From assembly GCA_964645485.1 (NCBI GenBank), contig CAZXZO010000003.1:62357-102479 (forward strand): a stretch of 40,123 nt of DNA. Reading direction: 5' to 3'. The notes below the pieces were generated by a model. It saw only the letters and a program-made list of their open reading frames with translations, was not told where the DNA came from and searched no databases. This document shows positions 248-23,858 of this stretch, one piece after another. The position numbers and the translations under genes are program-made. The first letter of the stretch is position 1. Each line of letters begins with the position of its first letter. This DNA is from an uncultured Candidatus Poseidoniales archaeon (GTDB lineage: Archaea > Thermoplasmatota > Poseidoniia > Poseidoniales > Thalassarchaeaceae).

Positions 248-466
248 ATGAGAGGGCGAAACTGGGTTGGAGTCGCTTTCATCTTTCTCTTTCTGCCCGT
301 TAACGTACCACTTTGGGATATCGCTTTCGAAAAACTAGATATTGATATTATGGCCGTTTTCATAACACCACTACTGTTTCTATTTGGTATATTGCTTGTA
401 TTCTATCCAAGTAGAAAGGATCGATACCAAACCATTCCATCAAACCAAATCAACGAGGAGGAGTGA
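248..466 (+). CDS. Small hypothetical membrane protein (72 aa, two hydrophobic segments)
   Basis: Two hydrophobic stretches (WVGVAFIFLFLPVNVPLW; IMAVFITPLLFLFGILLVFYP). The stop abuts the next gene's start, suggesting translational coupling. Confidence 0.6.
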   Translation: MRGRNWVGVAFIFLFLPVNVPLWDIAFEKLDIDIMAVFITPLLFLFGILLVFYPSRKDRYQTIPSNQINEEE

Positions 467-2793
467 AAATGAGGAAAATCATTGTAATTAGCCTCGTTTT
501 GGTATTTTCAACCTTTGCCTTACCACTGGCTACTGCTCAAGAAGATGTGCTTCCACCTGATGTTGATTATGAGCCAGAAATACGCATGACTACATTATTT
601 GCGTATAGCCAAGATACTCTATCTCCTGAATTCGTTGAGCGAACCGAAATGTACACTCATAATTTTGGATTTGGATTTGGTTCTGGGCCATCCAATGGGC
701 CAACTTTTACCACACCTAATTTTGTCCGTGATGCCCCAATTGGTAGCGAATCTTGGAATTTCTCACTTTGGGCAAGTGGAAGCGGCCAAGTTGATATTGA
801 CCTCTTCCTGTTCATTGATGGTACTGAATTAGACCAAGTAAATAGCGGTGGAATATCATTATCTGAAGAAAAACAACGTATTGATTTCACTGGAGGGAAT
901 TTACCAGATAACATTTCAATTGACCAAACTCTTTCAATCCGGTGGACGGTAAACAGCGGTGCTCTCCCACTCTTAGAGACTAGTGAATGCACAATCCACT
1001 GGGGCTCAATTGAAACCCCTACTAATCTAACAATCTCTGCTGGAATGTACCAAATTGATGACCCTTACCTAGAGAACGAAGGAACCCCGTTTAGAGGTGA
1101 TGGTGAGAACTATTCTCGAAGTGAGGTGGTTTGGGCGGTTCAAGCAAGGTGGGCTCTTGGTGAAGAACAGTTGGCGAAAGAAACCATAACTTTGCACGCT
1201 AGTGATGGCGGAAATGAACTAATGCTTCTACCGACAGGAGAAGGGATAAAATCTGATACTGGGATTTACCGTTGGGAAATTGAAGAATGGCATGATGGCG
1301 TGGTCATCTCTGCTCATGTGATGTGGAACGATTCTACAGGCAACCATGGGATGACCAATCAGGTGGTTGAAATGATGGACCCGAAGGGACCTAGTATCCT
1401 CAGTAGTAGCCTAAAATCGACATTATTCTTTTTGACTATTCCGCTTCTAATAGGAGTTGGAATCTGGCTAAAGGGGAGATATCACACTCTTGAAGAAAAG
1501 GGAAAGGAACTGGGTCACGGACCTCGTGAAGAAGGTGATTTAAAACGCCTAGTTCTAGCAACCACATTTTTGATTGCGGGGATTAACAACGCTCTTATCC
1601 TCTACACTTTCCACACCCGGGAGTTGGGTGCCTCTGAGGATATTGTGATTCTACATCTCTGTTTGCTGGCATTTGCGCTAGGTGTATTTGGGCTTCTTTG
1701 GGGCGCAATTGCTGATAAATTCGGTCACCGAAAGCAATTGATGGCTTTTGCAATCATTGGTTCAGCTTTACTGATGTTAACTTTCCCATTCCTGCCACTT
1801 GAGGCTTACATTTTTGCTTCAACATTACAGATTGCCCTATTTTCTGCGGTCCGAATGGCGGTTGCTGTTGGCACAGAATGGTATCCTGAACAAAAGGGTG
1901 AATTCCTTGGAGTGCTGTATGCATTCGCTTCATTTGCAGCCGCAATCGGCTCGATGTTATGCAGTAAATTGTATGTCGCTCTATTACCAACCAGTAGCAC
2001 ATTTGCGATGTTAGGAATTGTTGGAGTATCCGTACCTGCCCTACTAATGGGTGCTTACATGATTTTACAATTCAAAGGAGATGAATTTTCATGGCCTGTT
2101 TGGATGTTGAAAGGAGACAAAAAACCGGATGTTGTCAAGTTATCATTTTCGGAAAAATTGGAAATGTTTAGCGGAATGTTTCGATTTGAAAGTAAATGGG
2201 CACTTATCTGTCTGTTCGGTGTAATCCTTGTTGCAATCCCTCGAGGTGCTGTTGTTCTAACTGCTTTACGATACCTTGAGATTGTTGGCTTTGATGTAGA
2301 CTTCACCGGCCTATTAGAAGCATGGGCAGTGATTGCAGTACTCATTTTGTACGCAGTGATTGGCAAAGTTTGCGATGATCGGGGAGCACAAACGGTTCTG
2401 CTTTGGTCAGCAGCAGCATATGGAACTCTCTGGTCTATCTTCAGTATCGGTCTTCCACCTATGATTGCGGTGCTCATATTTATGGTTCCAATTTACCCGA
2501 TGCTACTAGTTTCAAATGATGCTTTGATTGCAAAATTCACAAATGAAGAAGAGAGAAATCGTGGAATTGGCATGGCAAGCCTTGTTGCGTTCTTAGGCCA
2601 ATCTATCGGAATCCTTGCTGGATTCTTCGCAATGGGATACCTCATAAGTTCTGGAAAAACAGATCTTATTGCTTACGAAACATTCTACAAAGCAAATGTG
2701 CCTCTTTGGATAATTGCAATTAGTTTCACGTATTGGCTTGCGAAGCGTATTGATAGTAACGAAAGTGTGATTGATGCTGAGATTAGTGAGTGA
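463..2793 (+). CDS. Fusion: signal peptide + ~300-aa extracytoplasmic domain + C-terminal MFS transporter
   Basis: N-terminal MRKIIVISLVLVFSTFALPLATAQE signal peptide, then an acidic soluble domain, then many TM segments with MFS motif A (WGAIADKFGHRK) and its C-half counterpart (GKVCDDRGAQ). True start is probably ATG 469 after GAGGAGG. Confidence 0.8.
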   Translation: MKMRKIIVISLVLVFSTFALPLATAQEDVLPPDVDYEPEIRMTTLFAYSQDTLSPEFVERTEMYTHNFGFGFGSGPSNGPTFTTPNFVRDAPIGSESWNFSLWASGSGQVDIDLFLFIDGTELDQVNSGGISLSEEKQRIDFTGGNLPDNISIDQTLSIRWTVNSGALPLLETSECTIHWGSIETPTNLTISAGMYQIDDPYLENEGTPFRGDGENYSRSEVVWAVQARWALGEEQLAKETITLHASDGGNELMLLPTGEGIKSDTGIYRWEIEEWHDGVVISAHVMWNDSTGNHGMTNQVVEMMDPKGPSILSSSLKSTLFFLTIPLLIGVGIWLKGRYHTLEEKGKELGHGPREEGDLKRLVLATTFLIAGINNALILYTFHTRELGASEDIVILHLCLLAFALGVFGLLWGAIADKFGHRKQLMAFAIIGSALLMLTFPFLPLEAYIFASTLQIALFSAVRMAVAVGTEWYPEQKGEFLGVLYAFASFAAAIGSMLCSKLYVALLPTSSTFAMLGIVGVSVPALLMGAYMILQFKGDEFSWPVWMLKGDKKPDVVKLSFSEKLEMFSGMFRFESKWALICLFGVILVAIPRGAVVLTALRYLEIVGFDVDFTGLLEAWAVIAVLILYAVIGKVCDDRGAQTVLLWSAAAYGTLWSIFSIGLPPMIAVLIFMVPIYPMLLVSNDALIAKFTNEEERNRGIGMASLVAFLGQSIGILAGFFAMGYLISSGKTDLIAYETFYKANVPLWIIAISFTYWLAKRIDSNESVIDAEISE

Positions 2794-2798
2794 ATCTT

Positions 2799-3494
2799 CT
2801 AGGTCAAATCAGTTTTGTGGGCTAGAGCCACATGGGTTAGTTGACCAGCAAGAATTGGTCTCCATGCATGAACTAGATACGATTGAGAATTAATAGTGAT
2901 TACATTTTTTCCTAGTACCTCAAATGATTGAGGAGCTAGACCCATCCCAAGTCCTGTTGCTTTCTGAATTGCTTCTTTCATCACCCAAATTGAGTTGGTT
3001 AGAGTTTTTGCGGCATCTGAATCATGGTCCCAAGCAGTCTCTAGTTTTTCCAATTCATTTCCTGCTGCCATAAGTGGTAGCAAATTGCGTTGCCGAGTAT
3101 TATCTAGTTCCACATCAATTCCAACAGATAATTCAGTTGGTCCGATAATTGCGATAGCTACTCCACCACTATGGGATATAGAAATTGAAATCGGCTTAGG
3201 CCCAATTAAAATTGGTCTTCGAAATTCATCCCTCTTGATTTGATAATCCTCGACAACATACCCATTCTGTTGAAGAAGATGAGCAATTAGAAAACGACCT
3301 GCAGCATGTTCTTCTGCCCGCTTTGCAACTTTGAATGATTGTGCTTCTATTGGGTCTACGAAATGGAGATGGGAAATATCTGGTATTGGGTCTGTTGCTT
3401 CGGGGGTGCGGGTGTTCATCCAAACTGCGTGGAATTGGCCATAAATATTTCCTACAAGATTTAACTGAGTAGGAATAGAGGGTGGTTTCCACAT
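2799..3494 (-). CDS. 4'-phosphopantetheinyl transferase (Sfp-type)
   Basis: Motifs HAAGRFLI, SISISHS, VGIDVE and WVMKEAIQKATGLG (WxxKEA). Lies 28 nt downstream of the type I synthase on the same strand. Confidence 0.9.
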   Translation of the reverse strand: MWKPPSIPTQLNLVGNIYGQFHAVWMNTRTPEATDPIPDISHLHFVDPIEAQSFKVAKRAEEHAAGRFLIAHLLQQNGYVVEDYQIKRDEFRRPILIGPKPISISISHSGGVAIAIIGPTELSVGIDVELDNTRQRNLLPLMAAGNELEKLETAWDHDSDAAKTLTNSIWVMKEAIQKATGLGMGLAPQSFEVLGKNVITINSQSYLVHAWRPILAGQLTHVALAHKTDLT

Positions 3495-3522
3495 TCAATT
3501 CACCAATTGGAAATTCAATTTT

Positions 3523-6500
3523 TCAATTGCGATTCAACGTAAATGAATCGTCTTCTGAAATAGGTGCCATTCCCTTCAATCGAAGGCCCTTCATTGCCAC
3601 AATCGGTTTACCATCTTGATTGACAATTAAGCAATCGTGAATACTGACTCCGTCATCTTCGCTACCTTTCCTCAAAGAACGCATTCGGAGGGAATCCGTC
3701 TTTTCGGGAACTCTAATCAATTCGAGCATCTCAATTCCAACCGGTAATGATTGCAAACCATCGATTTCCATTGCTACCATTCCAGCATTCTGGAAACAGG
3801 CTTCGATTAACATAGGTTGAGCTTCTAATGTGACATCTCCTACAGAGAATTGGTCGGTGTTTGGTAATTGATGACGAGATAATGCAATACCATCCACACC
3901 ATACATCTCACCGATACTACATCCACCCAAAATTCCACCATGTGATTGGAATCTAGGACCGTGGAAGAATCGTTGGTAAACAAAATCTGACCCAAGGGAT
4001 ACACCTCCTCTTGAAGGAGTACCAATTGATGGTAACTTCAGCAATCCTCGGTCTGCCTCTTTCTTCAGCATTCTAACTAATCCTCTGTGATGTATTCTTG
4101 GTTCACCGAATACCTCTCCAGATTTGTTGATTAAATCGGATTCCAATCTGCATTTAACCCAGACATTTTCCGCGTTTTGATGCGAGTATTCAGCAACCAA
4201 TCTCAACTTCTGTTCTTCTTTAATCAATTTAATTGGTAAACCAAAGCGAACCCCTGCAAATCCAATTACTGAGCAAGGTGGCCACAACAATTGTGCTCCT
4301 TGAGAAAACATTTCTAGAGCCATCACACCAGGATGATACGGCACATCATCAATGGCATGGTCTTGTAAGAATGGGTAATTATTGACATCTATTGTACACT
4401 CATAGGATAGCGAATCAAATGGTTCGTGTGACACAACTTTGTCAACAAAAGGGAAGCGGTTTGCATCGGCTAGTAATTCTGAAACATCTAGAGGTAACCT
4501 TTGAGGAGGCTCTCTGTCAGACCCATCATCATTCAGAACTCCGAGACTTCCAGCAAGGACAACTCTGCGTTTCCCACCTCTCATAACTTCCTCAACAAAA
4601 AGTGATACACCTTGTTCTACAGAGACAGTCTCTATGCCTGCTTGCTCAAACACGCTTGCAATTGAGCCACGAGTAGCCATTCCAACATCTTGCCAACCAG
4701 TCCACGCTAGGGCAACACCGTGAGGTTCTGAATCGGTGTGTGCGAGGCGAGACATCTCGGCATCGAGAATACAATTTGCCGCAGCATAATCGGTTTGCCC
4801 TCCATTACCAAATCTTCCCGCAATCGAGGTGAAAGCACAACAATATCGTAATTCTGTACTGTGGTCTTTGGCGGCATTGAAAAGAGATTGCCAACCATCA
4901 ATCTTGACAGACAAAACTTTGCTAAAGGTATTCCAATCCTTATCAGCAACCATCTTGGAATCTTCAATTCCCGCTCCATGAATAATTCCAGTTATCTGTG
5001 AGCACTTTTTCTTCAACTTCTTGAGAACTTTTCGAACTTGGCTACTCACTGTCACATCACATGAGTGATAAGTTACTGAATTACCACTAGATTCGATATC
5101 TAACATGGTTTTATGAATATCAATTGAACGAACAATCTCTGACCATGCATTCTCCCAATCAACGATTGTAACTTTGACAGATTTCGAATCTGTTTGCATC
5201 TGTTCTCGTAACTCTAATTTCATTTTCTGCAAAGTTTCATCTGTTGCAGTGGCTAAATTTGAAAGAGAATCGTCAAGTTTGGTTCTTCCTAGTAATGCAA
5301 AGTGGCATCCTACATCCCTATTGGCTTGTGCTAGCCCGACAATACATGCGGCAGTCACTCCTGAACCGCCCCCTGATACAATGAACACATCATCTGATTG
5401 TAGTGACTTCGGCTCAGATTCATGGGCTTCGTCATAGATGCAAACCTGCCATCTTCTACCATCCCCGTCAATTCCGATTTCACGAGGCCCCATATGCTCA
5501 ATTTCGGCGAGAATTGTTGTCGCTAATTTATCTGCATCAACCAATAGTTCGGGCGCTACATCGATTGCTCTTGCCCGGATGTTTGGCCTTTCCCTACCAT
5601 AGGATTTGACTATACCATGCGCCCCAGCACCAAGAGGATTGAAGCGATGACCGCCATTTCCATGGCGGCCATCAAGTGCTGAAATTGAACATACAATTCC
5701 GTCACTACGGTTAGCCAACTTCGCATCTATTTGTTGGAGTACCCCAAATAACCCATGGCAAACCATCTGTGTTTGTTGTTGACTAGTAACCTCTGCCCAA
5801 GCAATCCCGGCTAAGGTGGAAGGAGCAGTGTGAATAACTCCTGCAACATCTAAATCATTGATTATGTCTCCAAATTGAGTGAGATGGTCTTGATTGCCTG
5901 GATCTAATCTGATGATATCGATTTCTCCATCTTTTTCAATTTTGATGTTTGAAGTTATACTTGGGTCTAACATCAATCTAACAGCTTCTGACCCACTAGA
6001 TTCAAGTTGCTCACAAATTGCGTTTCCAAGCCCCCACGAATCGTCAGTCACAATGATGTATGAGCCAGCCATATCTATTGGATGGGCCTCAGATTCATCT
6101 GCCTCCTCAACCTCAACGACGAGGCGAGTAACAGTGCTTTCAACAGGAGTTAATTGCGGCTCTGGTTCTATTATTTCCACTTCAGGTTCAACAGGAGTTG
6201 ATTGCGGCTGTGGTTCCATTACTTCCACTTCAGGTTCATCGGGAATCTCCTCGGGTTCTTCAGGTTCTTCAGGTTCATCAGGAATCTCGGATTGCTCAGG
6301 GTCAGAGTCTGGAGTTTGCTCACTGACTGATTCATCTCCACGCATTGAAACGATGTAGGAAATCATATGTGCAAGAGTAGGATAGTCACGCAATTGGAAT
6401 GAATCATCTACAGGCAAGGAAAAGTTTTCTCGGCATTCAGCCATTATTTCCGCTTGTTTTACTGTATCAATCCCCAACTCACCTTCTAAATCTTGATCTA

Positions 6501-9500
6501 ACTCTAGGAAATCTTCTGGATAACCCGTGTGCTTTACAACGATTGAAAGGACGCCTGACTCAACATCGCTATCGTTATTCTCTATACTTGGAGAATGGTT
6601 CACCACCGGCTCTTCGGGCAGAGTAGTACTCTTGGAGACTTGCTCCTCTTGTGTGTTTTGTTGTTCATCTCCATATCCCCCCATAGCAACGATATAACTA
6701 ATCATGTGGTTCAGTGTTGGGTGTTCACGTAACTGGAATGAGTCATCAACCGGTAAGGAAAATGTTTCTCTTAAATCAGCCATTATTTCTGCCTGTTTCA
6801 CTGTGTCAATTCCTAATTCGCCCTCTAAGTCTTGGTCTAATTCAATGAAATCGGTCGGGTAACCTGTGTGCTTTGCAACAGTTTCCACAACTTGCTGTTC
6901 AAGCCCATCAGGATGGACTCCAACAGTTGGTTCGGGAACTGTCTCAGTTTCTTGAACTGGAATCGAAGACTCTTCTGTGGGTGATTCGATTTTCTCCTCT
7001 TTGATTACAATTGGCTCGGGTTCATTGGATTCGGAAGTTGTAGATTTCGCATCAATGGATGCAGGCTTTGCATCTTGCTTGGAAACTCGCCATTCACTAC
7101 CTTCAACGCCACCTATCAATGATTCATCCGGAGCAATGTAAGCGACTAATTTTCGCTCCAACAATCGTAATTCAACGTCATCACCTGCTTGCTGAATTGC
7201 CCAATTCACCACACTCTCTCTATCAACACGGTTGAGAGTTCTAGCAATTCGTTTGAACATTGTTAGAGCAATTTGGCTACCAAATCCAGCAGCATGGCGA
7301 AGCATGTATTCAACATCATATTCTCCACCTTCTGAAAGTCGGAGATTTCCTAATGAAGGGTCTGGTTGTTTGAAGTTAGCAATTGGCGGCAATCTGCCTG
7401 ATGCTAATCCATACAATCCAGTGGCATCTTCTATGCCAACACCCATCGGATGACCTGTGAATCCTTTGGTATTGGTTATGATTAAACTGTCAGCAGATTC
7501 CTTAAAAGCTCCTCTAAGTGATTCAATTTCAGCGGCTGCTGAACCTCCCCGTGGTGGAGTAAATGGTTCATGTGACATGAAAGTCGTTTTCGGAGCGATT
7601 TCATGTCTATCTATTCCCCACCGGTTTTCCATATCGGTCACAAACTCATCGAAAGTTGAGGCTACATGTTCCACATCAAGTCTAGTAGGATGGAAGGCTG
7701 AGTTACCAATGTGACCGCCCAATAACTCAGCATAAGGAATAACTCCCCTATCATCTGCATGAGATGATTTCTCAAGTACAAAGGCAGCACCACCCATACC
7801 CAGCAACATACCGTTGCGTCTGCCATCAAATGGCAACGCTACTTCTTCCACTACATTGCCCATTGAATGGGCACCTGCAGCGGCGAAGCCTGCACCAATC
7901 CATTCCATCAAATCTTCACCGGTGGAATCATCACCGCTGATTACAATAACTCTGTCACAACGACCAGAATCTAGCCAATCCTCTGCGATTGCGAAGGCTG
8001 CTGGAGTGGATGCACATGCGTTGTTAATAGCAAGATTTGGACCGCGGGCGCCTATCCATTGAGCGAACTGTGCGTGACCCATCGTCAGAATTTGAAGTAA
8101 GAATTTTCTATCGAAAGTACCGTTCTCATCAGCCCCATTATTCAGAGCGTGTCGCATGGCCATGGCTATTCCGGGAAATACCGAGGCGAACACAACCCCT
8201 GTTCTTTCACGAATTGAGTTAGGGAGATTCCACCCTCTCACTAATCTCTTACCTGCACTACTGACCTGTTCAACAGGCAATAATGGAAGTGCTGCATCTT
8301 TGAGAGCCTCCAATCCTGCGGCAAATGAAAGGGAAGTAGAAACATCCATTGCCGCCACTATTTTGGGGTCGATCCCATATTGCTTTGCCAAATCAAAGTA
8401 ACCACCAACGCCTGCTAATTGAGGTATCGTAGCAAAGGAATCACATGGTACGAATTCTGCTCTGCCATCTGTGTGCTTAACGATTCTAACCATATTTTTG
8501 TCGAGTAAACGCTGCTTGACATCATCAGGTAATTCGGTTATGAAATTCTCTCCAGCAATAATTCTCTCTAATGCATCTGGCTCAAAAATTTCATCCATAC
8601 CGGGGAGACCAAGGCTCACTCCGGTCACAACATAGGGGTTGATTCTTCTCTCTGCATGAGGATCAGAAGACACTACAACAGTACTTGCTCCTTTCACTTT
8701 TTGAGAAACAGTATATCCACTCGGGGGAGAGACTACCCATTCATTTAGGGAAACTAATGTTGTTAATTGGCTCGGGTCAGCCGGGCCTGATACAGATGCT
8801 TCAGATGCTATACTTGCTAGAAATTCGGGTAAGGCCTCATCTGAAATTCCAAGCGCTGAAAGATGGAGTTCACCTTTTATCAGACGGGATGGATAGCCGG
8901 TAATTTCTGAAATTCGGCTTGCTAGGTATCCCTCCTTGTCAACCACCTGTTGTACAACCTGGTGGCTATCACCAATTGCAATTGATTGTGATTGATTATT
9001 GTGAGATGCTTCTACTTGATTACTATCTGAGGAAGTGGATGGAAGCGGTCGAGAGCGGACTCGTAATTCTTCCATCTCTTCACTATTGATTGAACCACTG
9101 CTTCCAACTCCATTTTGTTGCCACACCTCCAAAGGCCCAGCCCTGAACCCTTCAGTGAGACGGTTTGAATCGCCTTGGTGCATTGATGGTAATCGTCCTG
9201 AAAGAGCACATACTGTTAGGGAAGATAGGAATGATGCTACTCCTCCCACCTTCGGGTGATTTGTGTTGGTAATTACCTTAGACCTTTTTTCGAGAATTTG
9301 TTCAGCGAAAAGTGCCAATGCTCGCTTAGGTCCTACCTCAATGAATAAGCGGCCACCTTGGCGATACATCTCTTCAATTTGTTGAGTCCATTCTACTGCA
9401 GATGACATCTGTGGTGCTAATTGATTCAGGATAGCATCGTGAACTGATTCACCATCTTTCAGGTTTTCAGGATAGAATTTCCCATCATAGTTTGCTGTAA

Positions 9501-12087
9501 TAGGGATTGACGGCAACGACAATTCTAATTCTTCAAGGAAGCGGTGTAGTGGCTCGTTTGCAGGTGCTACAATTCGTGAATGGAATGCGTGACTTGTCTG
9601 TAGAGTAACGCATGGAATATTCAATTCAGCAAATCGAGAAATTGCATTTTGCATTGGTTCTGTTTCTCCAGCGATGACGGCCATCATCGGGGAATTTTTA
9701 TTCGCGGCAATAATGTAACCATCAACTGAATCTATGACTTCCTGTATTTTCTCTAGTGGTGCAGAGACGCTTGCCATCAATCCCTTGTCCTTGACTTCCA
9801 CACTACCCATTTCAGTTCCCCGGGCAGCCGCAGCACGAAGTGCGTCGTGGAATTTCATGATTCCAGATACCATCAATGCGGCGTATTCACCCAAACTATG
9901 GCCAGCAACCATGTCTGGATTGATTCCGTGTTCACTTAGCAATCTGTAAATTGCTAAATCTGCTGTCAACATTGCTGGTTGAGTAAATTCAGTTTGCTTC
10001 AACTTGTTCTCAGCATCTTTTGCCTGCTGTTCTGATAGGTTATCGCGCAGAACGAACTCAGAAAGTTTCTCGCCTGCAAGAATTTCGGACATCGTGGAAT
10101 CCGCTTCATCCCATGTTTCCCCAATCACTTCAAACCTCTTTGAGAGATCTAAAGTCATGCCAACATATTGACTACCTTGACCCGGATACATTTGTACTAA
10201 TTTTGCAGTTGAGGGTAATGGACCCTGTTCAGTGATGAATACCATCTGTTTTGCTAAGAAGTCCCATTTTGTTGAATCTGAGAGATTATCACTCAGTAAC
10301 TCCATTCTCTTGGCTAATTGCCCCCAACTAGTGGCTACAATTCCGCAACGGGCTCCTTTGGCTTCAAAATCAGAGGATAAATCAGCGAGCACTGCTGAGA
10401 GTCTACGCCCTGCTGGGTCGGTGTCAAAATTTGATACAGATGATGAGAAGAGAATCGATTTAACTCGCTCAATTTCTGATGCTAATGAATCAATATCATC
10501 AGCATTTAGAAGCAAGATCCCTCCTTCAATATCCAGCAATTCCTGATGACTCATTGAAGGAGTTGCGGTTGGATCAAGAACACTTGGTGCGACAGGAATT
10601 TGTGCGCTAGAAGAGGACTGCTCCGCAAAACTATTGATGAGATTTTTGTGATGTTCGGGGTCGTATTGCTCAATGGTACAATGGAAATTTGTCCCACCAA
10701 AACCAAACGACGAAACACCCGCACGCCTAGGCCCTCTAGATTGTGGAATCGGCCAATCAGAGGAAATAGTTGGGACGAAAAATGGGATATCATTCCAGTT
10801 AACTGAAGTGTTTGGTTGTTCAAACCCGGCTGATGGAGGTAAAGTTCTGTGATGAAGTGCTAAACTTGCCTTCAACAACCCCGCCATTCCGGCAGCAGCC
10901 TTCAGATGCCCAATCTGGCTCTTCACCGAACCTACGGCAACAAAATCCCCAGCACCGCGTTCTGCAAAAACTCCAGCGAGGGTGGATAACTCAGTTGCGT
11001 CTCCAACCTTTGTGCTAGTTCCGTGAGCCTCAATCAATTCCACCGAGGACGGTGAATATCCTGCCTGTTGGTATGCGCGAACCACTGCTTGCTTTTGCCC
11101 CCGAGTTGATGGCGCAGTGATACCTTTTCCTCGACCGTCACTAGATGAGCCGATTCCTCGGATTACACTGTATATTGTATCGCCATCGGCCATTGCATCC
11201 TCCAATCGCTTGAGAACGACACAACCTGCTCCCTCCCCCATCACGAAGCCGTTAGCACGGACATCGAATGGACGAGAATGAAGTGGAGATAGGGCTCCAA
11301 TAGCACTGAATTTTGCATATGTCCCTGGGTCCATAGTACGGTCACTTGCCCCACATAGCATCAAATCAGTTTGACCTGTTTGCAACATCTGGCATGCCGA
11401 TACTAATGCTGCAAATGTCGATGCACAAGCGGCATCAGCACTGAAATTCGGGCCTTGTAAGTCGAGTAGATTTGCTACTCGCCCTGCAACAACATTTGCT
11501 AGTTCTCCAGCCATTGTATCTTCATCAATTCGAGGTGTTCCTTCAGTGATTGCATCTTTGAATTCATCACTATTGGTTGCTGGCATTCCAGCTTCAACTG
11601 CCTTCCGTGTAATTTGGTCTGCGTAAACTCGTTTACTAGACTGGACTCGGTTTTCCCCACCCAATGCATTAGCGAAAATTACCCCACAGCGAGCCTTGGG
11701 GAGTTCTAAACGGCTATTTTCGCCGATGTAACCTGCGTCCTCCAATGCTGCTGCTGAAACTTCAACAGCCCACAATTGGGTGTCATCAATTTGGGAGAGT
11801 GTTCCCGGCGGTTGTTTCCAGCGCCTCCAATTAAATTCAAAACCTTCTACAAAAGCCCCGATCTTTGAGTAGGTTTTTCCTTCTGTTGCATTACCTGGCT
11901 CACCTTCAATCCAAAAATCAGCCGGGTCCCATCTATCAGGTGGCACTTCACGAATTGCTACTTTCGCATTCAACACATTATTCCAAAACGCGTCAATATT
12001 CGGTGCATCAGGTAAAAGAGCAGCCTGACCAACAATCGCAATCGGCGCGAAAGGTTGTTGGGGAACTTCGGCCAGCTGTTCAGTCAT
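3523..12087 (-). CDS. Type I iterative fatty-acid/polyketide synthase, 2854 aa: KS-AT-(degenerate ACP)-KS-ACP-ACP-KR-DH
   Basis: KS1 DAACAST/EAHGTST/GHLKAAAG; AT GHSLGEY with HAFH; KS2 NNACAST/SHEPFT/KGFTGHPMG; two ACPs ELGIDTVKQAEI; KR SGGGSGVT and DYAAAN; DH DHAIDDVPYHP. Confidence 0.92.
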   Translation of the reverse strand: MTEQLAEVPQQPFAPIAIVGQAALLPDAPNIDAFWNNVLNAKVAIREVPPDRWDPADFWIEGEPGNATEGKTYSKIGAFVEGFEFNWRRWKQPPGTLSQIDDTQLWAVEVSAAALEDAGYIGENSRLELPKARCGVIFANALGGENRVQSSKRVYADQITRKAVEAGMPATNSDEFKDAITEGTPRIDEDTMAGELANVVAGRVANLLDLQGPNFSADAACASTFAALVSACQMLQTGQTDLMLCGASDRTMDPGTYAKFSAIGALSPLHSRPFDVRANGFVMGEGAGCVVLKRLEDAMADGDTIYSVIRGIGSSSDGRGKGITAPSTRGQKQAVVRAYQQAGYSPSSVELIEAHGTSTKVGDATELSTLAGVFAERGAGDFVAVGSVKSQIGHLKAAAGMAGLLKASLALHHRTLPPSAGFEQPNTSVNWNDIPFFVPTISSDWPIPQSRGPRRAGVSSFGFGGTNFHCTIEQYDPEHHKNLINSFAEQSSSSAQIPVAPSVLDPTATPSMSHQELLDIEGGILLLNADDIDSLASEIERVKSILFSSSVSNFDTDPAGRRLSAVLADLSSDFEAKGARCGIVATSWGQLAKRMELLSDNLSDSTKWDFLAKQMVFITEQGPLPSTAKLVQMYPGQGSQYVGMTLDLSKRFEVIGETWDEADSTMSEILAGEKLSEFVLRDNLSEQQAKDAENKLKQTEFTQPAMLTADLAIYRLLSEHGINPDMVAGHSLGEYAALMVSGIMKFHDALRAAAARGTEMGSVEVKDKGLMASVSAPLEKIQEVIDSVDGYIIAANKNSPMMAVIAGETEPMQNAISRFAELNIPCVTLQTSHAFHSRIVAPANEPLHRFLEELELSLPSIPITANYDGKFYPENLKDGESVHDAILNQLAPQMSSAVEWTQQIEEMYRQGGRLFIEVGPKRALALFAEQILEKRSKVITNTNHPKVGGVASFLSSLTVCALSGRLPSMHQGDSNRLTEGFRAGPLEVWQQNGVGSSGSINSEEMEELRVRSRPLPSTSSDSNQVEASHNNQSQSIAIGDSHQVVQQVVDKEGYLASRISEITGYPSRLIKGELHLSALGISDEALPEFLASIASEASVSGPADPSQLTTLVSLNEWVVSPPSGYTVSQKVKGASTVVVSSDPHAERRINPYVVTGVSLGLPGMDEIFEPDALERIIAGENFITELPDDVKQRLLDKNMVRIVKHTDGRAEFVPCDSFATIPQLAGVGGYFDLAKQYGIDPKIVAAMDVSTSLSFAAGLEALKDAALPLLPVEQVSSAGKRLVRGWNLPNSIRERTGVVFASVFPGIAMAMRHALNNGADENGTFDRKFLLQILTMGHAQFAQWIGARGPNLAINNACASTPAAFAIAEDWLDSGRCDRVIVISGDDSTGEDLMEWIGAGFAAAGAHSMGNVVEEVALPFDGRRNGMLLGMGGAAFVLEKSSHADDRGVIPYAELLGGHIGNSAFHPTRLDVEHVASTFDEFVTDMENRWGIDRHEIAPKTTFMSHEPFTPPRGGSAAAEIESLRGAFKESADSLIITNTKGFTGHPMGVGIEDATGLYGLASGRLPPIANFKQPDPSLGNLRLSEGGEYDVEYMLRHAAGFGSQIALTMFKRIARTLNRVDRESVVNWAIQQAGDDVELRLLERKLVAYIAPDESLIGGVEGSEWRVSKQDAKPASIDAKSTTSESNEPEPIVIKEEKIESPTEESSIPVQETETVPEPTVGVHPDGLEQQVVETVAKHTGYPTDFIELDQDLEGELGIDTVKQAEIMADLRETFSLPVDDSFQLREHPTLNHMISYIVAMGGYGDEQQNTQEEQVSKSTTLPEEPVVNHSPSIENNDSDVESGVLSIVVKHTGYPEDFLELDQDLEGELGIDTVKQAEIMAECRENFSLPVDDSFQLRDYPTLAHMISYIVSMRGDESVSEQTPDSDPEQSEIPDEPEEPEEPEEIPDEPEVEVMEPQPQSTPVEPEVEIIEPEPQLTPVESTVTRLVVEVEEADESEAHPIDMAGSYIIVTDDSWGLGNAICEQLESSGSEAVRLMLDPSITSNIKIEKDGEIDIIRLDPGNQDHLTQFGDIINDLDVAGVIHTAPSTLAGIAWAEVTSQQQTQMVCHGLFGVLQQIDAKLANRSDGIVCSISALDGRHGNGGHRFNPLGAGAHGIVKSYGRERPNIRARAIDVAPELLVDADKLATTILAEIEHMGPREIGIDGDGRRWQVCIYDEAHESEPKSLQSDDVFIVSGGGSGVTAACIVGLAQANRDVGCHFALLGRTKLDDSLSNLATATDETLQKMKLELREQMQTDSKSVKVTIVDWENAWSEIVRSIDIHKTMLDIESSGNSVTYHSCDVTVSSQVRKVLKKLKKKCSQITGIIHGAGIEDSKMVADKDWNTFSKVLSVKIDGWQSLFNAAKDHSTELRYCCAFTSIAGRFGNGGQTDYAAANCILDAEMSRLAHTDSEPHGVALAWTGWQDVGMATRGSIASVFEQAGIETVSVEQGVSLFVEEVMRGGKRRVVLAGSLGVLNDDGSDREPPQRLPLDVSELLADANRFPFVDKVVSHEPFDSLSYECTIDVNNYPFLQDHAIDDVPYHPGVMALEMFSQGAQLLWPPCSVIGFAGVRFGLPIKLIKEEQKLRLVAEYSHQNAENVWVKCRLESDLINKSGEVFGEPRIHHRGLVRMLKKEADRGLLKLPSIGTPSRGGVSLGSDFVYQRFFHGPRFQSHGGILGGCSIGEMYGVDGIALSRHQLPNTDQFSVGDVTLEAQPMLIEACFQNAGMVAMEIDGLQSLPVGIEMLELIRVPEKTDSLRMRSLRKGSEDDGVSIHDCLIVNQDGKPIVAMKGLRLKGMAPISEDDSFTLNRN
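6139..6290. repeat. In-frame tandem repeats encoding the acidic Pro/Glu linker between ACP2 and KR
   Basis: Two 48-bp units (6139-6186, 6187-6234; 4 mismatches) encode PEVEVMEPQPQSTPVE/PEVEIIEPEPQLTPVE, next to short 9-bp-type repeats encoding EPE. Confidence 0.85.
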
Positions 12088-12096
12088 ATTATCGCC

Positions 12097-12888
12097 TCAA
12101 TCTGAGATACTGTCAGGTACCATAATGCTAGAATATCCTGCGTCAACATGAATAATTTGTCCTGTGACACCTGAAGATAATGGCGAGGACAACCAAGTTG
12201 CACATCCAGCAACATCCTCCTGTGTGACATTTCTACGTAGTGGCGAGTTTCTCTCCACATGGTCAAGAATGTCGTCAAATCCAGGAATACCTCCTGCCGC
12301 TAAGGTCTTGATTGGGCCCGATGAAATTGCATTAACCCGGTGACCATCCGGACCAACATGATTTGCAAGTTCGCGAGTCCAAGCTTCCAATGCTGCTTTT
12401 GCTATACTCATCACCCCATAGTTTGGAACCCATCTCGTTGAGGCCGCATAGGTTAGTGTAATTGTTGAAGAGTTAGGGGCAAGATGTGGCAAAGCATAGC
12501 GCATCACTCTTTGTAATGAATGAGCACTGATTGTCATGGCTGTGTTCATAGGTTCATTTTCTACGAATAACACTGGTCGATCAAAACATGGACGTGGCGC
12601 AAATCCAATAGCATGAATGACAATATCTGCTTTTGCACCAGGGTTTGCATTTTGCCACTCTGTGAAAAATTCGGCTGTTAATTCATTTGTTTCAACATCA
12701 ATTGGGTAAAATGCTTCAATATTGTCTAACTTCTCTTTCAATTGAAATACTCGGCTCATAAATCGCTTCTGAAAACCAAGAATTAACTTACACCCAGCTG
12801 CTGATAATTGCTCGCAAATCGCCCATGCAATACTTTCTTCGCTAGCCACACCGAATACTAGTGCAGTTTTTCCCTTTAGTTCCAACAT
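12097..12888 (-). CDS. fabI: Enoyl-ACP reductase (FabI, NAD(P)H-dependent SDR)
   Basis: LKGKTALVFGVASEESIAWAI, NYGVMSIAKAALE (Y-x6-K), ISSGPIKTLAA. Start set at ATG 12888 (CAGGTG upstream) rather than the ORF-track 12972. Stop is 9 nt from the synthase start. Confidence 0.9.
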   Translation of the reverse strand: MLELKGKTALVFGVASEESIAWAICEQLSAAGCKLILGFQKRFMSRVFQLKEKLDNIEAFYPIDVETNELTAEFFTEWQNANPGAKADIVIHAIGFAPRPCFDRPVLFVENEPMNTAMTISAHSLQRVMRYALPHLAPNSSTITLTYAASTRWVPNYGVMSIAKAALEAWTRELANHVGPDGHRVNAISSGPIKTLAAGGIPGFDDILDHVERNSPLRRNVTQEDVAGCATWLSSPLSSGVTGQIIHVDAGYSSIMVPDSISD

Positions 12889-13041
12889 AAAAGCACCTGT
12901 TCCTACCAACATCGGTTCGCCGGCGAAGACGCCTTCAAGACCTTTGCCTACCCTGTGAGCCAAGAGCGTCATTCACGAAGGGATGTAATTATCCCAACAA
13001 TGTGCACCATACAACCTCATTTGAGTACAAATATCAAAATT

Positions 13042-13056
13042 CCGACCGTAGGTCGG
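13042..13056. promoter_or_regulatory. Perfect inverted repeat upstream of the fabI-synthase unit (candidate operator or terminator)
   Basis: CCGACC-GTA-GGTCGG, a GC-rich palindrome in the AT-rich tatD-fabI intergenic region. Confidence 0.35.
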
Positions 13057-13137
13057 GTAGAACTCTTGTTGAAATTGTGAAAAATGAAAGATTTTACAAA
13101 ACGTGTTCAAATTTAATCAAATAATGATGATGTGGTT

Positions 13138-14019
13138 TCACTCATATTCTCCATACAAAGCCTCGGGTAGATCGATATGAATGGCGCTCAATACCGCTTC
13201 TGCATCTAATCCTCTGCCAATTAGAGAAGTAGCAAGAGTTTGAGTTCTACGAGGTACGGTCTTTGGACCTAGCACTGCACCAGGTCTTCGTGGATCATCC
13301 ATGTAATCAGTTTCCATGAGGAAACCACCTTCATTTTGCCAGATAGTATCGGAAATATCCTTTATTGAATCACGACCAACTACTACTGAGGATGTCAAAC
13401 CATGTGTGAATTTTTTACTGATATTTGCTTCTGCGTGATGATGGATTGCACCAAATCTAGGGAATCCTACGTGGTCACAAATCTTAGCAATTTCACGATT
13501 GGTTTTTTCACCATTCGCGTCAAGGTGAAGTTGGACCGGGACATTTGCCTTTTTACACATTGAAAGCATTTCAATCAAAATCTCATCAGCCTGATTCAAC
13601 ACATCATCGCCAACATCCCAGTGAGGGCGTCCTATTTCACCAACTCCAACTGCTAAATTTTCTTCGCAAAATTCGATTGCTAATTCAACCGCTTGAAGGT
13701 GTAAATCATTTGATTCATCAACACCTAAGTCCGCACACTGATGAACCCAGGCAGCAGGGTGTGGGCCGAGTACAACTCGAACCCTCAAATCACATTCCAA
13801 ACGGACTTGTTTCGCCATCGCTACGGTGTCTTCGTATGCCTCTCTAATTTCTCCTACAGTATTTGGGAGATTGTCAAAATCTGGCTTGTGAACCAATACT
13901 AAATCAGTTCCACCAGCACGCTGGAAATCGGCCGCTGCATCAAGATAACGACCGACTCTATCCAAGTGGAAATGGTTGTCTAGAATTGGGCCATCCCAGT
14001 GCCCATCAACAAGAGTCAT
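13138..14019 (-). CDS. TatD-family metal-dependent hydrolase/nuclease
   Basis: DNHFHLD (HxH), VGVGEIG, VQLH and METDY motifs of the TatD amidohydrolase fold. Confidence 0.85.
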   Translation of the reverse strand: MTLVDGHWDGPILDNHFHLDRVGRYLDAAADFQRAGGTDLVLVHKPDFDNLPNTVGEIREAYEDTVAMAKQVRLECDLRVRVVLGPHPAAWVHQCADLGVDESNDLHLQAVELAIEFCEENLAVGVGEIGRPHWDVGDDVLNQADEILIEMLSMCKKANVPVQLHLDANGEKTNREIAKICDHVGFPRFGAIHHHAEANISKKFTHGLTSSVVVGRDSIKDISDTIWQNEGGFLMETDYMDDPRRPGAVLGPKTVPRRTQTLATSLIGRGLDAEAVLSAIHIDLPEALYGEYE

Positions 14020-14028
14020 TGTGGTGCC

Positions 14029-14652
14029 TCACGAATCTTCTTCATCGACTTCAAGTGCAGGCTCTTGTGGCTCGGGTTCAACTTTTTCCTCAGATTCATC
14101 GGATTTCACTAATACTTCCACGAATAGATTTTCGGCATCAAATTTAGTTCCCCAATGTGTGGCTGCCATCTCGACCAAATTTTTGTGCCTTGCTCCAAGA
14201 GCAATTCCAAGTCCATTTGAAAAGAATAGTAAATCCATATCGTGTAGTTCGTCACTAATACGAATGCACTCAAGCCGCTCATCTGATTCAAAAGCAGGAT
14301 AATATTCTGAAACTTGGTCTGTTCTAAGTGGTTGGCCAAAATCAAACGAAACCACCAGAGGGCCTTTCTCGGTACTAATGCCTTCATCGGGCCTACCTAA
14401 TCTGAGTAACATCTCACGAGCTGCGGCCCATGCGATTTCTGAATGATTGGTCCCGTGTACCACCAATCTTCCCTCTTCATCAACTAATAGTGTGGCTCGT
14501 GGATTCTTAAGAGCCAGTATCACATACTTACCACTCTTTTTGCCACCAAGGGAATTGATGACCTCTTCTGCTTCAAATGGTTGAGGTGCTGTGAACCTAA
14601 CCAACTGGTTCTCTACCCTAACTTTGACTGCACTTCGACGACCCATCTTCAC
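14029..14652 (-). CDS. Divergent TATA-box-binding-protein (TBP)-fold protein
   Basis: Two pseudo-repeats resembling TBP halves: ATLLVDEEGRLVVHGT...AWAAAREML and MDLLFFSNGLGIALGARH...VEMAATHW. The canonical YEPEQFPGL segments are absent. Acidic C-terminal tail. Confidence 0.6.
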   Translation of the reverse strand: MKMGRRSAVKVRVENQLVRFTAPQPFEAEEVINSLGGKKSGKYVILALKNPRATLLVDEEGRLVVHGTNHSEIAWAAAREMLLRLGRPDEGISTEKGPLVVSFDFGQPLRTDQVSEYYPAFESDERLECIRISDELHDMDLLFFSNGLGIALGARHKNLVEMAATHWGTKFDAENLFVEVLVKSDESEEKVEPEPQEPALEVDEEDS

Positions 14653-15431
14653 TCCTCCAACCCGTCTGCTTCAACATCTTCCACTTCTACGTTAGTCTTG
14701 AGCGTTGCGAGTATGTCTGCCATCCAATCTTGGTAAATTGGCACGATTAAAACTGGTTCTTCTTTGAGCGATGAAAGATTTGCTAGTGCTCCCCGTATTC
14801 GACCAGCAAATCTAAGATTTCTGCTCGCCTGCAAATCAGCAGTTGAGAATGATTCTGAAACTCTCCACCAAGTTGCCGCTAATCCTGCTGCTATTGCAAG
14901 TGACTCCGCCCCCTCTGATATCGGAGGTTCGCTAACTTCCCGTTGAGTTCGCTTCCAAGTTTTAGCAAAACGGCGGCGAGCAAATAATTGCAAAAACATA
15001 CGTGATAATTTCGCAGCCTCGTCAGCAGAATCTTCCAAGTAACTGAGCCAGTCCTCGTCTTCAACTCCCGGCTCTATGAAATAAGTAGGAATATTGTCTC
15101 TATCTGCTAACTTGAGTAAACGGCGAGGCTCAGGATCAGGGAATTTCGCGCCCTTGACATCTTCTAACAACTGCATGCGGATTAGCATTCTCGCCAAATC
15201 ACCTCCTCCATGTATTGCTAACATTGTTGAGGAGCCTTTTCCTGACTTCTCCATCTTTTCTTCATCTTCCCAAGATTCTCGCTCTTCTGGATGAAGCAAA
15301 AATGCAAGCCCATCCCAATCATCTCGGGGACGTAGTTTGCGCGGTAATACAACAGTGGGGATGTAAGGGAAAAATCTGATTACCCCACCTTTTGGGTCTT
15401 TCCAATCCATCGGTTTCCAAGGCCAAGACAA
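14649..15431 (-). CDS. Hypothetical protein (260 aa)
   Basis: Long ORF whose stop overlaps the start of the TBP-like gene by 4 nt. No motif recognised. Confidence 0.75.
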   Translation of the reverse strand: MSWPWKPMDWKDPKGGVIRFFPYIPTVVLPRKLRPRDDWDGLAFLLHPEERESWEDEEKMEKSGKGSSTMLAIHGGGDLARMLIRMQLLEDVKGAKFPDPEPRRLLKLADRDNIPTYFIEPGVEDEDWLSYLEDSADEAAKLSRMFLQLFARRRFAKTWKRTQREVSEPPISEGAESLAIAAGLAATWWRVSESFSTADLQASRNLRFAGRIRGALANLSSLKEEPVLIVPIYQDWMADILATLKTNVEVEDVEADGLEE

Positions 15432-15440
15432 GAGAACACC

Positions 15441-16646
15441 TCAACCTAAAATTGATGAATCCTTAGCTAAATCGTTGGTGATATTCTTCTGGTGACTCTC
15501 CAAAGTCCCACCACCGATTTCAAGCAGTTTTGCGTCACGCCATAATCTCTCAACTACATATTCTCCAACATAACCGTAACCACCCATGACTTGCATAGCA
15601 CGATCTGCAATATCCTTCGCTAGGGTTGTTGAGACCAATTTGATACCGTCAGAATCCAGACGATTACCGCTTTGTTCAACATCCATTTGTCTAGCCACAT
15701 TGTAGAGGTATGCCTCCATTCCACGCCATTCAGCAAATGATTGCCCGATGTAACGTTGTATCTGACCAAAATCTCTAATCGGCCGCCCAAATGCTTCTCT
15801 CTCGGTGGCATAACGATTCATTTCTTTGACACAGCGGCGAGCAATACCTAGACTCATCCCCGCTAAAGTAAGCCGTTCTAATTCTAGATTTCTCATCATG
15901 TGAATCATTGATTCACCACATTCCCCAACGAGACTATCAGGGCCAACCACACAGTCATCATAGACTAATTCAGCTGTGTTGGAACCACGCATTCCAGTTT
16001 TATCAACAATCTTTTGCCCAACTGAAAACCCAGGGGAATCTGCGAACACCATGAAAGTTGAAATCTCAGCTCTACCGTTTTCTTTTACTCCTGTTTTAGC
16101 ATAAGTCCAAACAACATCACATGGTGTACCTTCTTCATCAATACAGCCGTTAGTAATCCACATTTTACGGCCGTTGATTACCCAATTTCCGTCATCTCTT
16201 TGCTGAGCAGTAGTGCCCATTGACATCACATCTGTACCAACATCTGGTTCAGACATTGCCATGGCTCCTATCCACTCACCACTGCAAACTTTGGGAAGTA
16301 TCTCTTGCTTTTGAGTAGAATTACCATTTCGTGATAGGTTGTTGACAAACAACATACTATGAGCAAGATACGCCAAAGCAAATCCAGGGTCACTATAGGA
16401 TAATTCCTCGTGAACAATTGTAGCGGCTAAGGCGTCCATTCCAGCCCCACCATACTCTTCTGGAGCGGTAATTCCCAATAGCCCTAGTTCACCCATATCA
16501 CGTAATAATTGGAGATTGAACACCTCATTTCGGTCAAACTCAAGTGCTTGTGGCTCAACTTCTGAACTGACCCAGTCACGAACCATTTCTCTTAACATTG
16601 CATGTTCTTCGGTCGGATTGGCGATGTCAAGCGTCTTGTAATCCAC
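15441..16646 (-). CDS. ivd: Acyl-CoA dehydrogenase, isovaleryl-CoA dehydrogenase-like
   Basis: AMSEPDVGTD, GRKMWITNG, LELERL and LWRDAKLLEIGGGT. There is no Glu at the MCAD IYEG position, as in IVD-type enzymes. Start set at GTG 16646 (GAGGGTGA upstream), which avoids overlap with the upstream gene. Confidence 0.75.
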   Translation of the reverse strand: MDYKTLDIANPTEEHAMLREMVRDWVSSEVEPQALEFDRNEVFNLQLLRDMGELGLLGITAPEEYGGAGMDALAATIVHEELSYSDPGFALAYLAHSMLFVNNLSRNGNSTQKQEILPKVCSGEWIGAMAMSEPDVGTDVMSMGTTAQQRDDGNWVINGRKMWITNGCIDEEGTPCDVVWTYAKTGVKENGRAEISTFMVFADSPGFSVGQKIVDKTGMRGSNTAELVYDDCVVGPDSLVGECGESMIHMMRNLELERLTLAGMSLGIARRCVKEMNRYATEREAFGRPIRDFGQIQRYIGQSFAEWRGMEAYLYNVARQMDVEQSGNRLDSDGIKLVSTTLAKDIADRAMQVMGGYGYVGEYVVERLWRDAKLLEIGGGTLESHQKNITNDLAKDSSILG

Positions 16647-16675
16647 GCTCTCACCCTCATCTAATTTACGTGATC

Positions 16676-23396: not shown

Positions 23397-23858
23397 ATGC
23401 CGGATGAGCCATTCACGACTGAACCAGTAGTACTAATTCAGGAAGTTTTCCCTGGGGATACGAATGCTTACAACACCCTTTTTGGCGGTAGATTGCTTTC
23501 AATAATGGATACTGCTGCAGGGATTGTCTCTAGTAAATTTGCCCACCGCGAGTTTGTGACTGTCAGCATTGATTCCCTCAAATTCAAACGTCCTGCATTC
23601 CAAGGAGATTTGATTGAGGTTACTGCACAGGTTGTTTTTACTTCAACCCATACCGCTGGTTGCTACATAATCGCTAGGCGGCTTGACCGCAGTGTTTGGG
23701 AATCAGAAGATATCTGTACTGGCTTTTTCTTTATGGTTGCAATTGATAATCAAATGAGACCAATTCCTATTCCTCAGTTAGTCCCAAAAAGTGAGGAAGA
23801 AAAGAATCTGTGGAAAGCAGCGGAATCTGCTCGTGATGCAATGAAGGCATCTGACTGA
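23397..23858 (+). CDS. Hotdog-fold acyl-CoA thioesterase (YciA-like)
   Basis: DTNAYNTLFGGRLLSIMD...VTVSIDSLKFKRP...GDLIEV signature. Confidence 0.9.
   Translation: MPDEPFTTEPVVLIQEVFPGDTNAYNTLFGGRLLSIMDTAAGIVSSKFAHREFVTVSIDSLKFKRPAFQGDLIEVTAQVVFTSTHTAGCYIIARRLDRSVWESEDICTGFFFMVAIDNQMRPIPIPQLVPKSEEEKNLWKAAESARDAMKASD

Follow-up and report, generated by a model that had tools for sequence, protein, structure and literature searches.

The window considered here, by which we mean the whole stretch of DNA that was analysed (40,123 nucleotides, positions 62357-102479 of contig C3 in a 1.94-Mb assembly of 55 contigs that is 82% complete), comes from an uncultured archaeon of the family Thalassarchaeaceae in the order Poseidoniales, the Marine Group II archaea. 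Its minus strand carries three co-oriented open reading frames (ORFs), together spanning 2799-12972 in the ORF listing, for a FabI-like enoyl reductase, a type I megasynthase and a 4'-phosphopantetheinyl transferase (PPTase). It is the architecture of this operon, its distribution among archaea and bacteria, and its probable function that concern us here.

Layout of the operon and its products

Read directly from the letters, the spacers measure 9 nt between the FabI stop and the megasynthase and 28 nt between the megasynthase stop and the PPTase gene, the same gaps that a first-pass annotation had given, and each holds a Shine-Dalgarno-like GAGG or GGTGA. Because most FabI orthologues are 263 aa long (public records name them FabI of Marine Group II), the start chosen in that annotation, Met29 of the longest ORF, is the likely one. 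The full reductive set that it had described, ketosynthase (KS), acyltransferase (AT), acyl carrier protein (ACP), ketoreductase (KR) and dehydratase (DH) with FabI and the PPTase in trans, was recovered domain by domain (Table 1), with all catalytic motifs of the three encoded proteins intact and with the malonyl-selecting HAFH motif located in the AT. No thioesterase domain was found in the megasynthase.

Table 1. Genes of the operon, with the domains and motifs of their products (window coordinates; residues are numbered in the megasynthase unless a gene row)
Feature	Position	Strand	Details
FabI-type enoyl-ACP reductase, acting in trans	12097..12888	-	likely start Met29 at 12888; longest ORF 12097-12972, 291 aa; PF13561 (adh_short_C2) 2e-66; catalytic Tyr/Lys motif (Tyr-x6-Lys) at 12385-12453
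Iterative type I megasynthase, KS1-MAT-(decayed ACP0)-KS2-ACP-ACP-KR-DH (MAT, malonyl-type AT)	3523..12087	-	2854 aa
KS1, PfaA-type ketosynthase	10645..12045	-	residues 15-481; PF00109, PF02801, PF16197; Cys221, His355, His394
Malonyl-type acyltransferase	9202..10191	-	residues 633-962; PF00698 1.7e-35, TIGR00128 FabD 7e-55; GHSLGE at 9886-9903, HAFH at 9580-9591
ACP0, decayed carrier-like segment	8713..8938	-	about residues 1050-1125; LGISD at acceptor-motif site
KS2, divergent ketosynthase	7213..8631	-	about residues 1153-1625; PF00109 2e-14
ACP1	6691..6897	-	residues 1731-1799; PF00550; Thr1762, codon 6802-6804
ACP2	6352..6558	-	about residues 1844-1912; PF00550; Thr1875, codon 6463-6465
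Ketoreductase catalytic region	4687..5379	-	residues 2237-2467; PF08659 1.3e-26; Gly-rich motif 5353-5379, Ser motif 4813-4833, Tyr motif 4774-4794
PS-type double-hotdog dehydratase	3574..4452	-	residues 2546-2838; PF21089, PF14765; His2577 in HxxxDxxxxP, then PGV
Sfp-type 4'-phosphopantetheinyl transferase	2799..3494	-	231 aa; PF01648 (ACPS) 3.5e-8, PF17837 (4PPT_N) 5.4e-7

The C-terminal half of KS2 is scarcely matched by Pfam; in a search of PDB sequences the domain aligns to FabF structures (best 8e-23), and the Cys and the two His stand in register. The catalytic triad, Cys1358, His1506 and His1546, does not vary among the 18 family members aligned, which also have in common the signatures SHE(T/P)xTPxRGG and KGFTGHPMG. 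The replacement of the active-site Cys, typically by Gln, that marks chain-length factors (CLFs) and KSQ domains is not seen in KS2, and because the Cys and both His are kept and invariant, its residues identify it as a predicted ketosynthase and no CLF.

The segment between the AT and KS2, ACP0, has no Pfam match in its own protein. It aligns to ACP1 and, at the same place, to an intact PP-binding domain (DLGIDTVK) of the relative P0133, and a second relative, P0125, has a weak PP-binding match there. The alignments to ACP1 and to the intact domain thus suggest that the ancestral layout of the family consisted of two modules, KS1-AT-ACP0 followed by KS2-ACPn-KR-DH, and ACP0 has decayed in the archaeal clade. 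A length polymorphism is found further along the protein, in the acidic, Pro/Glu-rich low-complexity linker after ACP2, where at 6190-6263 the contigs of two marine runs (X4 and X5) swap 72 nt for 15 other letters.

The ACPs that had been annotated are present, but with this decayed third segment beside them and with an altered carrier site. Both match PF00550, but the canonical Ser of the (D/G)xDS motif is replaced in each by Thr: they read LGIDTVKQAEIM, with GIDT in place of GIDS, and the Thr, its codons read directly, falls in alignment on the Ser that bears the cofactor in the two solved PigH ACPs (5y08). These two ACPs are the sole PP-binding domains of the genome. Counted over orthologues of the order, the carrier site holds Thr 142 times and Ser 79 times, in motifs that are otherwise near-identical; over the wider family, represented at 50% identity, the counts are 241 for Thr and 11 for Ser; and a population variant at 6802, present in another run's contigs, is a synonymous change that keeps the Thr. 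Since Thr dominates both the orthologues and the wider family and is kept by the variant, it is a hallmark of the family and no lesion of this particular gene. The free exchange of Ser and Thr within near-identical motifs argues that the carrier site is functional.

FabI matches a dozen NCBIfam FabI models, all under their equivalog cut-offs (best 227 bits against 391), and its gene lies directly upstream of the synthase in 8 of the 8 archaeal loci compared. The PPTase carries the motifs VGIDVE and WVMKEA (WxxKEA) that characterize the Sfp type. A 90-genome sample of the order contains one PPTase-family gene per genome, solely in genera that have the synthase, and the two genes are close together wherever the coordinates of both were listed; the PPTase is dedicated to the synthase.

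Host chromosome and distribution in the order

The closest named orthologues, in homologue searches that used domain-sized queries of the megasynthase, belong to metagenome-assembled genomes (MAGs) labelled 'Candidatus Thalassarchaeaceae', 'Poseidoniales' and 'Marine Group II euryarchaeote'. In our survey of the order, a step that the first-pass annotation had suggested, the synthase occurs in 133 of the 201 sampled genomes (98/99, 32/99 and 2/2 in three families), and the orthologous matches listed are nearly all stop-free, the exceptions being two matches from fragmented assemblies, each with one TAA. The order FabI-synthase-PPTase is conserved in all three families, including the one-contig closed genome G003, and the neighbouring genes for TatD, a TBP-like protein (TBP, TATA-binding protein), hyp260, a 1946-aa protein, ThiI and a 4HBT thioesterase are syntenic in the three families as well. 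Continuity across the junction of synthase, FabI, TatD and TBP-like genes, which had been singled out for checking, is borne out by contigs from other public runs that bridge 11276-15845. None of the runs listed as containing this stretch is an RNA run. Three-family synteny, the closed genome and the bridging contigs together exclude a chimeric assembly.

The surroundings are likewise those first described, archaeal housekeeping genes without mobility genes: Pfam scans of the window find Cdc6/Orc1, a PPAT/DUF359 fusion, a class I aldolase and a weak TBP-like match, and no mobility gene. Genes for thermosome, Hsp70 and HMG-CoA synthase lie near the operon in G003. The view of the operon as stably resident in an archaeal chromosome is thus upheld by an order-wide, syntenic distribution that extends to a closed genome. 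The distribution also includes loss. The synthase is absent from six genera of the window's own family (68 genomes of 1.2-1.7 Mb, among them the single-contig genome G027), and in the 90-genome sample these genera are without the PPTase too; the product would therefore be dispensable for such a streamlined lifestyle.

Several neighbours of the operon deserve mention in their own right. The TBP-like gene (14029-14652, minus strand) encodes a 207-aa protein with a sub-threshold TBP match (PF00352, 2.7e-4) and stands beside TatD order-wide. The 1946-aa ORF (16676-22516, minus strand) has no Pfam match and also adjoins a related operon on a 3.0-Mb contig (L029). A 776-aa transporter of the major facilitator superfamily with a long N-terminal extension (463-2793, plus strand) converges on the PPTase gene; a gene of this superfamily adjoins the operon in two related genera as well as on the 3.0-Mb contig, and not in the second family. 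In G003 an extra 376-aa gene without a Pfam match (L013:18827-19957) lies between TatD and FabI, a trait of the second large family that the window does not have.

Relatives in bacteria and in other archaea

The core layout of the archaeal operon was already catalogued in bacteria in 2011, as the 'Type R' cluster of pfa-like secondary-lipid synthases (Shulse & Allen 2011, PLoS One 6:e20146; PMC3098273). Type R consists of one pfaA homologue with the organization KS-MAT-CLF-ACP(3-6)-KR followed by a PPTase gene, its product unknown, and was described from Koribacter, Solibacter, Elusimicrobium and Roseiflexus, with an acetyl-CoA carboxylase (ACC) gene between synthase and PPTase in Koribacter; the same survey treats the heterocyst-glycolipid and phenolic-lipid synthases. 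The earlier remark that no characterised enzyme has this architecture does not stand as a claim of novelty, since the layout is that of Type R, although it is true that no member has been characterised biochemically.

The archaeal synthase resembles Type R in being a single pfaA homologue, in its order of KS, MAT, second KS, tandem ACPs and KR, in the PPTase gene that follows 28 nt past its stop, and in the KS2 signatures, which it has in common with loci of the Korobacteraceae and Bryobacteraceae. KS2 shares 42-50% identity with family members and falls among them, apart from KS1. The differences lie in the host, here an archaeon, in the FabI gene immediately upstream, in the number of ACPs (two against 3-6) and in the decay of the ACP between AT and KS2. 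What is called 'CLF' in Type R occupies the position of KS2, in which the Cys is kept, as is true of the whole family. The relatives compared are MAG loci of the Korobacteraceae, Bryobacteraceae and others, not the four strains named in PMC3098273; in one of them, L030, the genes run synthase-ACC-PPTase, as reported for Koribacter.

The family is large. A KS2 search of 1.8 billion cluster representatives returned 523 clusters at E<=1e-30, and a scan of species-representative genomes gave at least 596 stretches matching KS2, from which 80 loci were listed, all bacterial and mostly from Acidobacteriota (including Korobacteraceae and Bryobacteraceae), with others from Actinomycetota, Rhodothermota, Bacteroidota, Calditrichota, Binatota and Verrucomicrobiota. 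To these 80 we added 4 loci obtained through protein look-up, of which one (L029) is archaeal, and compared the genes around the synthase. Upstream of it, 71 of the 84 loci have an acyl-CoA-dehydrogenase gene, and downstream 52 have an ACC or biotin-carboxylase gene; FabI adjoins the synthase only in the archaeal one. Plausibly, bacteria may borrow FabI from their type II system, and an archaeon without such a system must carry its own. The window has an acyl-CoA dehydrogenase of its own (15441-16721), which we considered as an orthologue of the bacterial-cluster enzyme and rejected at only ~29% identity. The carboxylase that lies between synthase and PPTase in bacterial Type R clusters (about 52/84) is a single-chain, eukaryote-like ACC, which in L030 (L030:15631-21219) is 1862 aa long with the domains BC-BCCP-ACC_central-CT.

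Other known systems fit less well. PfaA (TIGR02813) is the best NCBIfam match of the megasynthase, which shares with the bacterial and thraustochytrid synthases of polyunsaturated fatty acids (PUFAs; pfaABCDE) the order KS-MAT-tandem ACP-KR-DH and a separate Sfp-type PPTase. It differs in the extra KS between AT and ACPs and in an enoyl reductase that is FabI, a short-chain dehydrogenase/reductase (SDR), and not the flavin enzyme PfaD. With a score of 838.4 bits against a cut-off of 1010.1 and with FabI linked in place of PfaD, we reject membership in the PfaA/PUFA group. No PfaB, PfaC or PfaD partner was seen, the synthase being the single match in the genome and the PfaC and PfaD families not having been searched separately, and PUFA synthesis is not expected because there is no FabA-type isomerising dehydratase. 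Enediyne polyketide synthases (PKSEs), with the layout KS-AT-ACP-KR-DH-PPTase, are iterative type I systems, as are the HglE-type synthases of heterocyst glycolipids, and both have the series KS-AT-ACP-KR-DH in common with the present family; both are without a second KS or a linked enoyl reductase, and the PKSE makes a polyene. In some members of the present family (L111, L112 and L129) the PPTase is fused to the C-terminus of the synthase, in which they can be likened to PKSEs. The Sulfolobus acidocaldarius fatty-acid synthase complex (bioRxiv 10.1101/2024.07.05.601840) resembles the operon described here in being put forward as an archaeal route to fatty acids, but it is an ACP-independent, CoA-based assembly of discrete thiolase/DUF35, SDR and MaoC enzymes with neither ACP nor PPTase, whereas the Poseidoniales system is a single ACP- and PPTase-dependent megasynthase.

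Synthases of the KS2 type are not confined among archaea to the Poseidoniales. They occur in at least 7 other families of Thermoplasmatota (for example in 16/16 and 8/9 sampled genomes), in contexts that vary from an ACC gene downstream, to PPTase and biotin-carboxylase genes, to FabI upstream. Family representatives include entries labelled Asgard group and Heimdallarchaeota, and the Heimdallarchaeota contig WJIK01000017.1 (L129:1-8605) has Pcc1 too, along with a ribosomal S15 gene of archaeal/eukaryotic type. In KS2 trees, rooted on the paralogous KS1 and hence on a very long branch, the Poseidoniales rows and the syntenic sequence from the 3.0-Mb contig form one clade with 100% support, inside which two well-supported groups are consistent with vertical descent. 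The sister of this clade shifts with taxon sampling, being the bacterial-context sequences P0131, P0133 and P0155 in two trees and an Acidobacteriota-type clade in another, and a topology that unites all 21 archaeal rows in one clade is not rejected by the approximately unbiased (AU) test (p=0.52). Inference of a donor failed on this dependence on sampling, and we claim neither donor nor direction of transfer. The 'bacterially derived' origin proposed in the first-pass annotation is therefore weakened to a possible one, since the sister group shifts, the family is found in other Thermoplasmatota and on Asgard contigs, and one archaeal clade is not rejected.

In earlier surveys of marine archaeal genomes, type I polyketide synthases (T1PKS) were the second-largest class of clusters and terpene clusters were attributed to Thermoplasmatota (PMC10304266), and polyketide-synthase transcripts have been recorded from Thermoplasmatota MAGs (PMC9902471). 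No mention of the synthase was found in the major genome papers on Marine Group II that we read.

Proposed function and its meaning

We propose, at a probability of about 0.7, that the operon is a functional and vertically inherited part of the chromosome of a Thalassarchaeaceae archaeon and encodes an iterative, carrier-dependent, fully reducing acyl-chain synthase of the Type R family. From the domains and motifs, the Sfp-type PPTase would use CoA to arm the tandem ACPs at Thr1762 and Thr1875, and the HAFH-type AT would load malonyl units from malonyl-CoA, to be supplied by acyl-CoA carboxylases encoded elsewhere in the genome, where genes for three carboxyltransferases and one biotin carboxylase are found. 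KS1 and KS2 would run the decarboxylative condensations, probably over different chain-length ranges or in priming as against elongation, and KR and DH in cis with FabI in trans would complete every reductive cycle. The outcome would be a straight acyl-ACP, saturated or largely so, which is the simplest product given the full reductive domain set with FabI and given that no FabA-type isomerase, PfaC or PfaD is linked. As the megasynthase has no thioesterase domain, release would occur in trans, through an acyltransferase or a hotdog thioesterase, for which the PlsC-type acyltransferases (in 201/201 genomes of the order, as the survey showed, with three in this one) and the syntenic 4HBT thioesterase (23397-23858) are candidates. 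Since entire genera have lost operon and PPTase alike, the product would be an accessory lipid building block and not an indispensable one.

Some points weigh against this proposal. The scores of FabI lie below the NCBIfam equivalog cut-offs, and its activity on acyl-ACP is therefore inferred from its place in the operon. The literature searched holds no precedent for threonine-linked phosphopantetheine, and Ser-to-Thr mutants of the E. coli ACP are not known to be modified.

A possible, and in our view tentative, rival reading is that the synthase feeds fatty acids to ester-linked or 'mixed' membrane phospholipids through the action of PlsC on glycerol-3-phosphate (G3P). It would agree with the universal presence of PlsC-family acyltransferases in the order and with a 555-aa PlsC paralogue (G000:C14, L024:421-2088) that was found solely in synthase-bearing genera: 11 genera have paralogue and synthase, 3 the synthase alone, 6 neither and none the paralogue alone. 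This association is weak, however, as the genomes are related and the co-loss may represent one event in a single streamlined clade. A G3P dehydrogenase gene, and no gene for a glycerol-1-phosphate (G1P) dehydrogenase, has been reported in Poseidoniales (PMC6461757, PMC7852524). Against the membrane reading, the six genera without synthase and PPTase keep their PlsC-type genes, so that the synthase cannot serve the core membrane throughout the order; for the hybrid or ester lipids raised in the first-pass annotation, a place in the core membrane becomes doubtful for the same reason. A search of this genome, 82% complete, turned up no PlsY. Villanueva et al. in 2017 reportedly noted 'bacterial-like fatty acid genes' in Marine Group II. 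Divergent beside the gene for the 555-aa acyltransferase is one of the CD36 family (L024:2149-3432 in G000:C14; PF01130, 1.9e-12), a eukaryotic-type family of lipid scavenging and transfer.

Rather doubtful is a specialised secondary lipid or polyketide as the product, with FabI acting only at some cycles, for instance a long-chain hydroxylated or partly unsaturated chain or the alkyl moiety of a glycolipid, pigment or hydrocarbon. The relatives are 'secondary lipid' synthases, PfaA is the nearest NCBIfam model, the operon is dispensable in several genera, tandem ACPs with two ketosynthases are typical of product-specialised iterative systems, and genome-mining tools class such clusters as T1PKS. 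What stands against such a product is that no FabA-type dehydratase/isomerase, PfaC/PfaD partner, type III polyketide synthase, sulfotransferase/thioesterase or glycosyltransferase is linked to the operon, and that a tightly coupled FabI points to full reduction.

Very unlikely is an essential role in supplying octanoyl-ACP to LipB and LipA for lipoate, as in the mitochondrial system, even though the genome encodes both enzymes (99.7 and 366 bits, each above its cut-off) and has no ACPs other than those of the synthase. LipB is found in 88 of 91 genomes of the order, including every sampled genome of the six synthase-less genera, and we reject lipoate supply as a rationale for the operon, LipB being present independently of the synthase. 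The LipB gene (G000:C13:21827-22336) is bacterial in type and scores above the curated cut-off, and such genes occur also in genera that have neither an ACP-bearing synthase nor a PPTase. Most improbable of all is an artefact of assembly or binning, or else a decaying relic with Thr-ACPs that cannot be activated, for although the assembly is incomplete and fragmented and the canonical Ser is missing from both ACPs, the former is refuted by the three-family synteny, the closed genome and the bridging contigs, and the latter is opposed by orthologues that are nearly all stop-free with conserved catalytic residues, by a dedicated PPTase retained wherever the synthase occurs, and by the prevalence of Thr across the family and the synonymous variant at 6802.

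Archaea are described as lacking FAS I and FAS II (fatty-acid synthases of types I and II) and, nearly always, ACP and ACP synthase (bioRxiv 10.1101/2024.07.05.601840), and current reviews likewise state that they have neither type of synthase. To set beside this, most Marine Group II archaea share, as a conserved feature of the chromosome, an ACP-dependent reducing synthase that is complete and comes with a PPTase and a FabI of its own, and the same synthase family is found in other Thermoplasmatota and on Asgard contigs. The operon offers a concrete three-gene candidate that bears on the 'mixed membrane' idea for the uncultured Marine Group II, it bears on whether a carrier protein can hold its cofactor on threonine, and its natural loss in six genera provides a built-in comparison for environmental lipidomics. 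A bolder joint reading, which we think unlikely as a whole, is that Poseidoniales, other Thermoplasmatota, Heimdall/Asgard archaea and many bacteria share a large family of type I synthases with threonine-linked phosphopantetheine and dedicated PPTases, and that in the archaea these would make fatty acids de novo for ester-linked lipids. If it is true, bacterial-type acyl lipids would be made, with machinery of their own, by archaea that rank among the most abundant in the ocean and by relatives of the eukaryotic ancestor.

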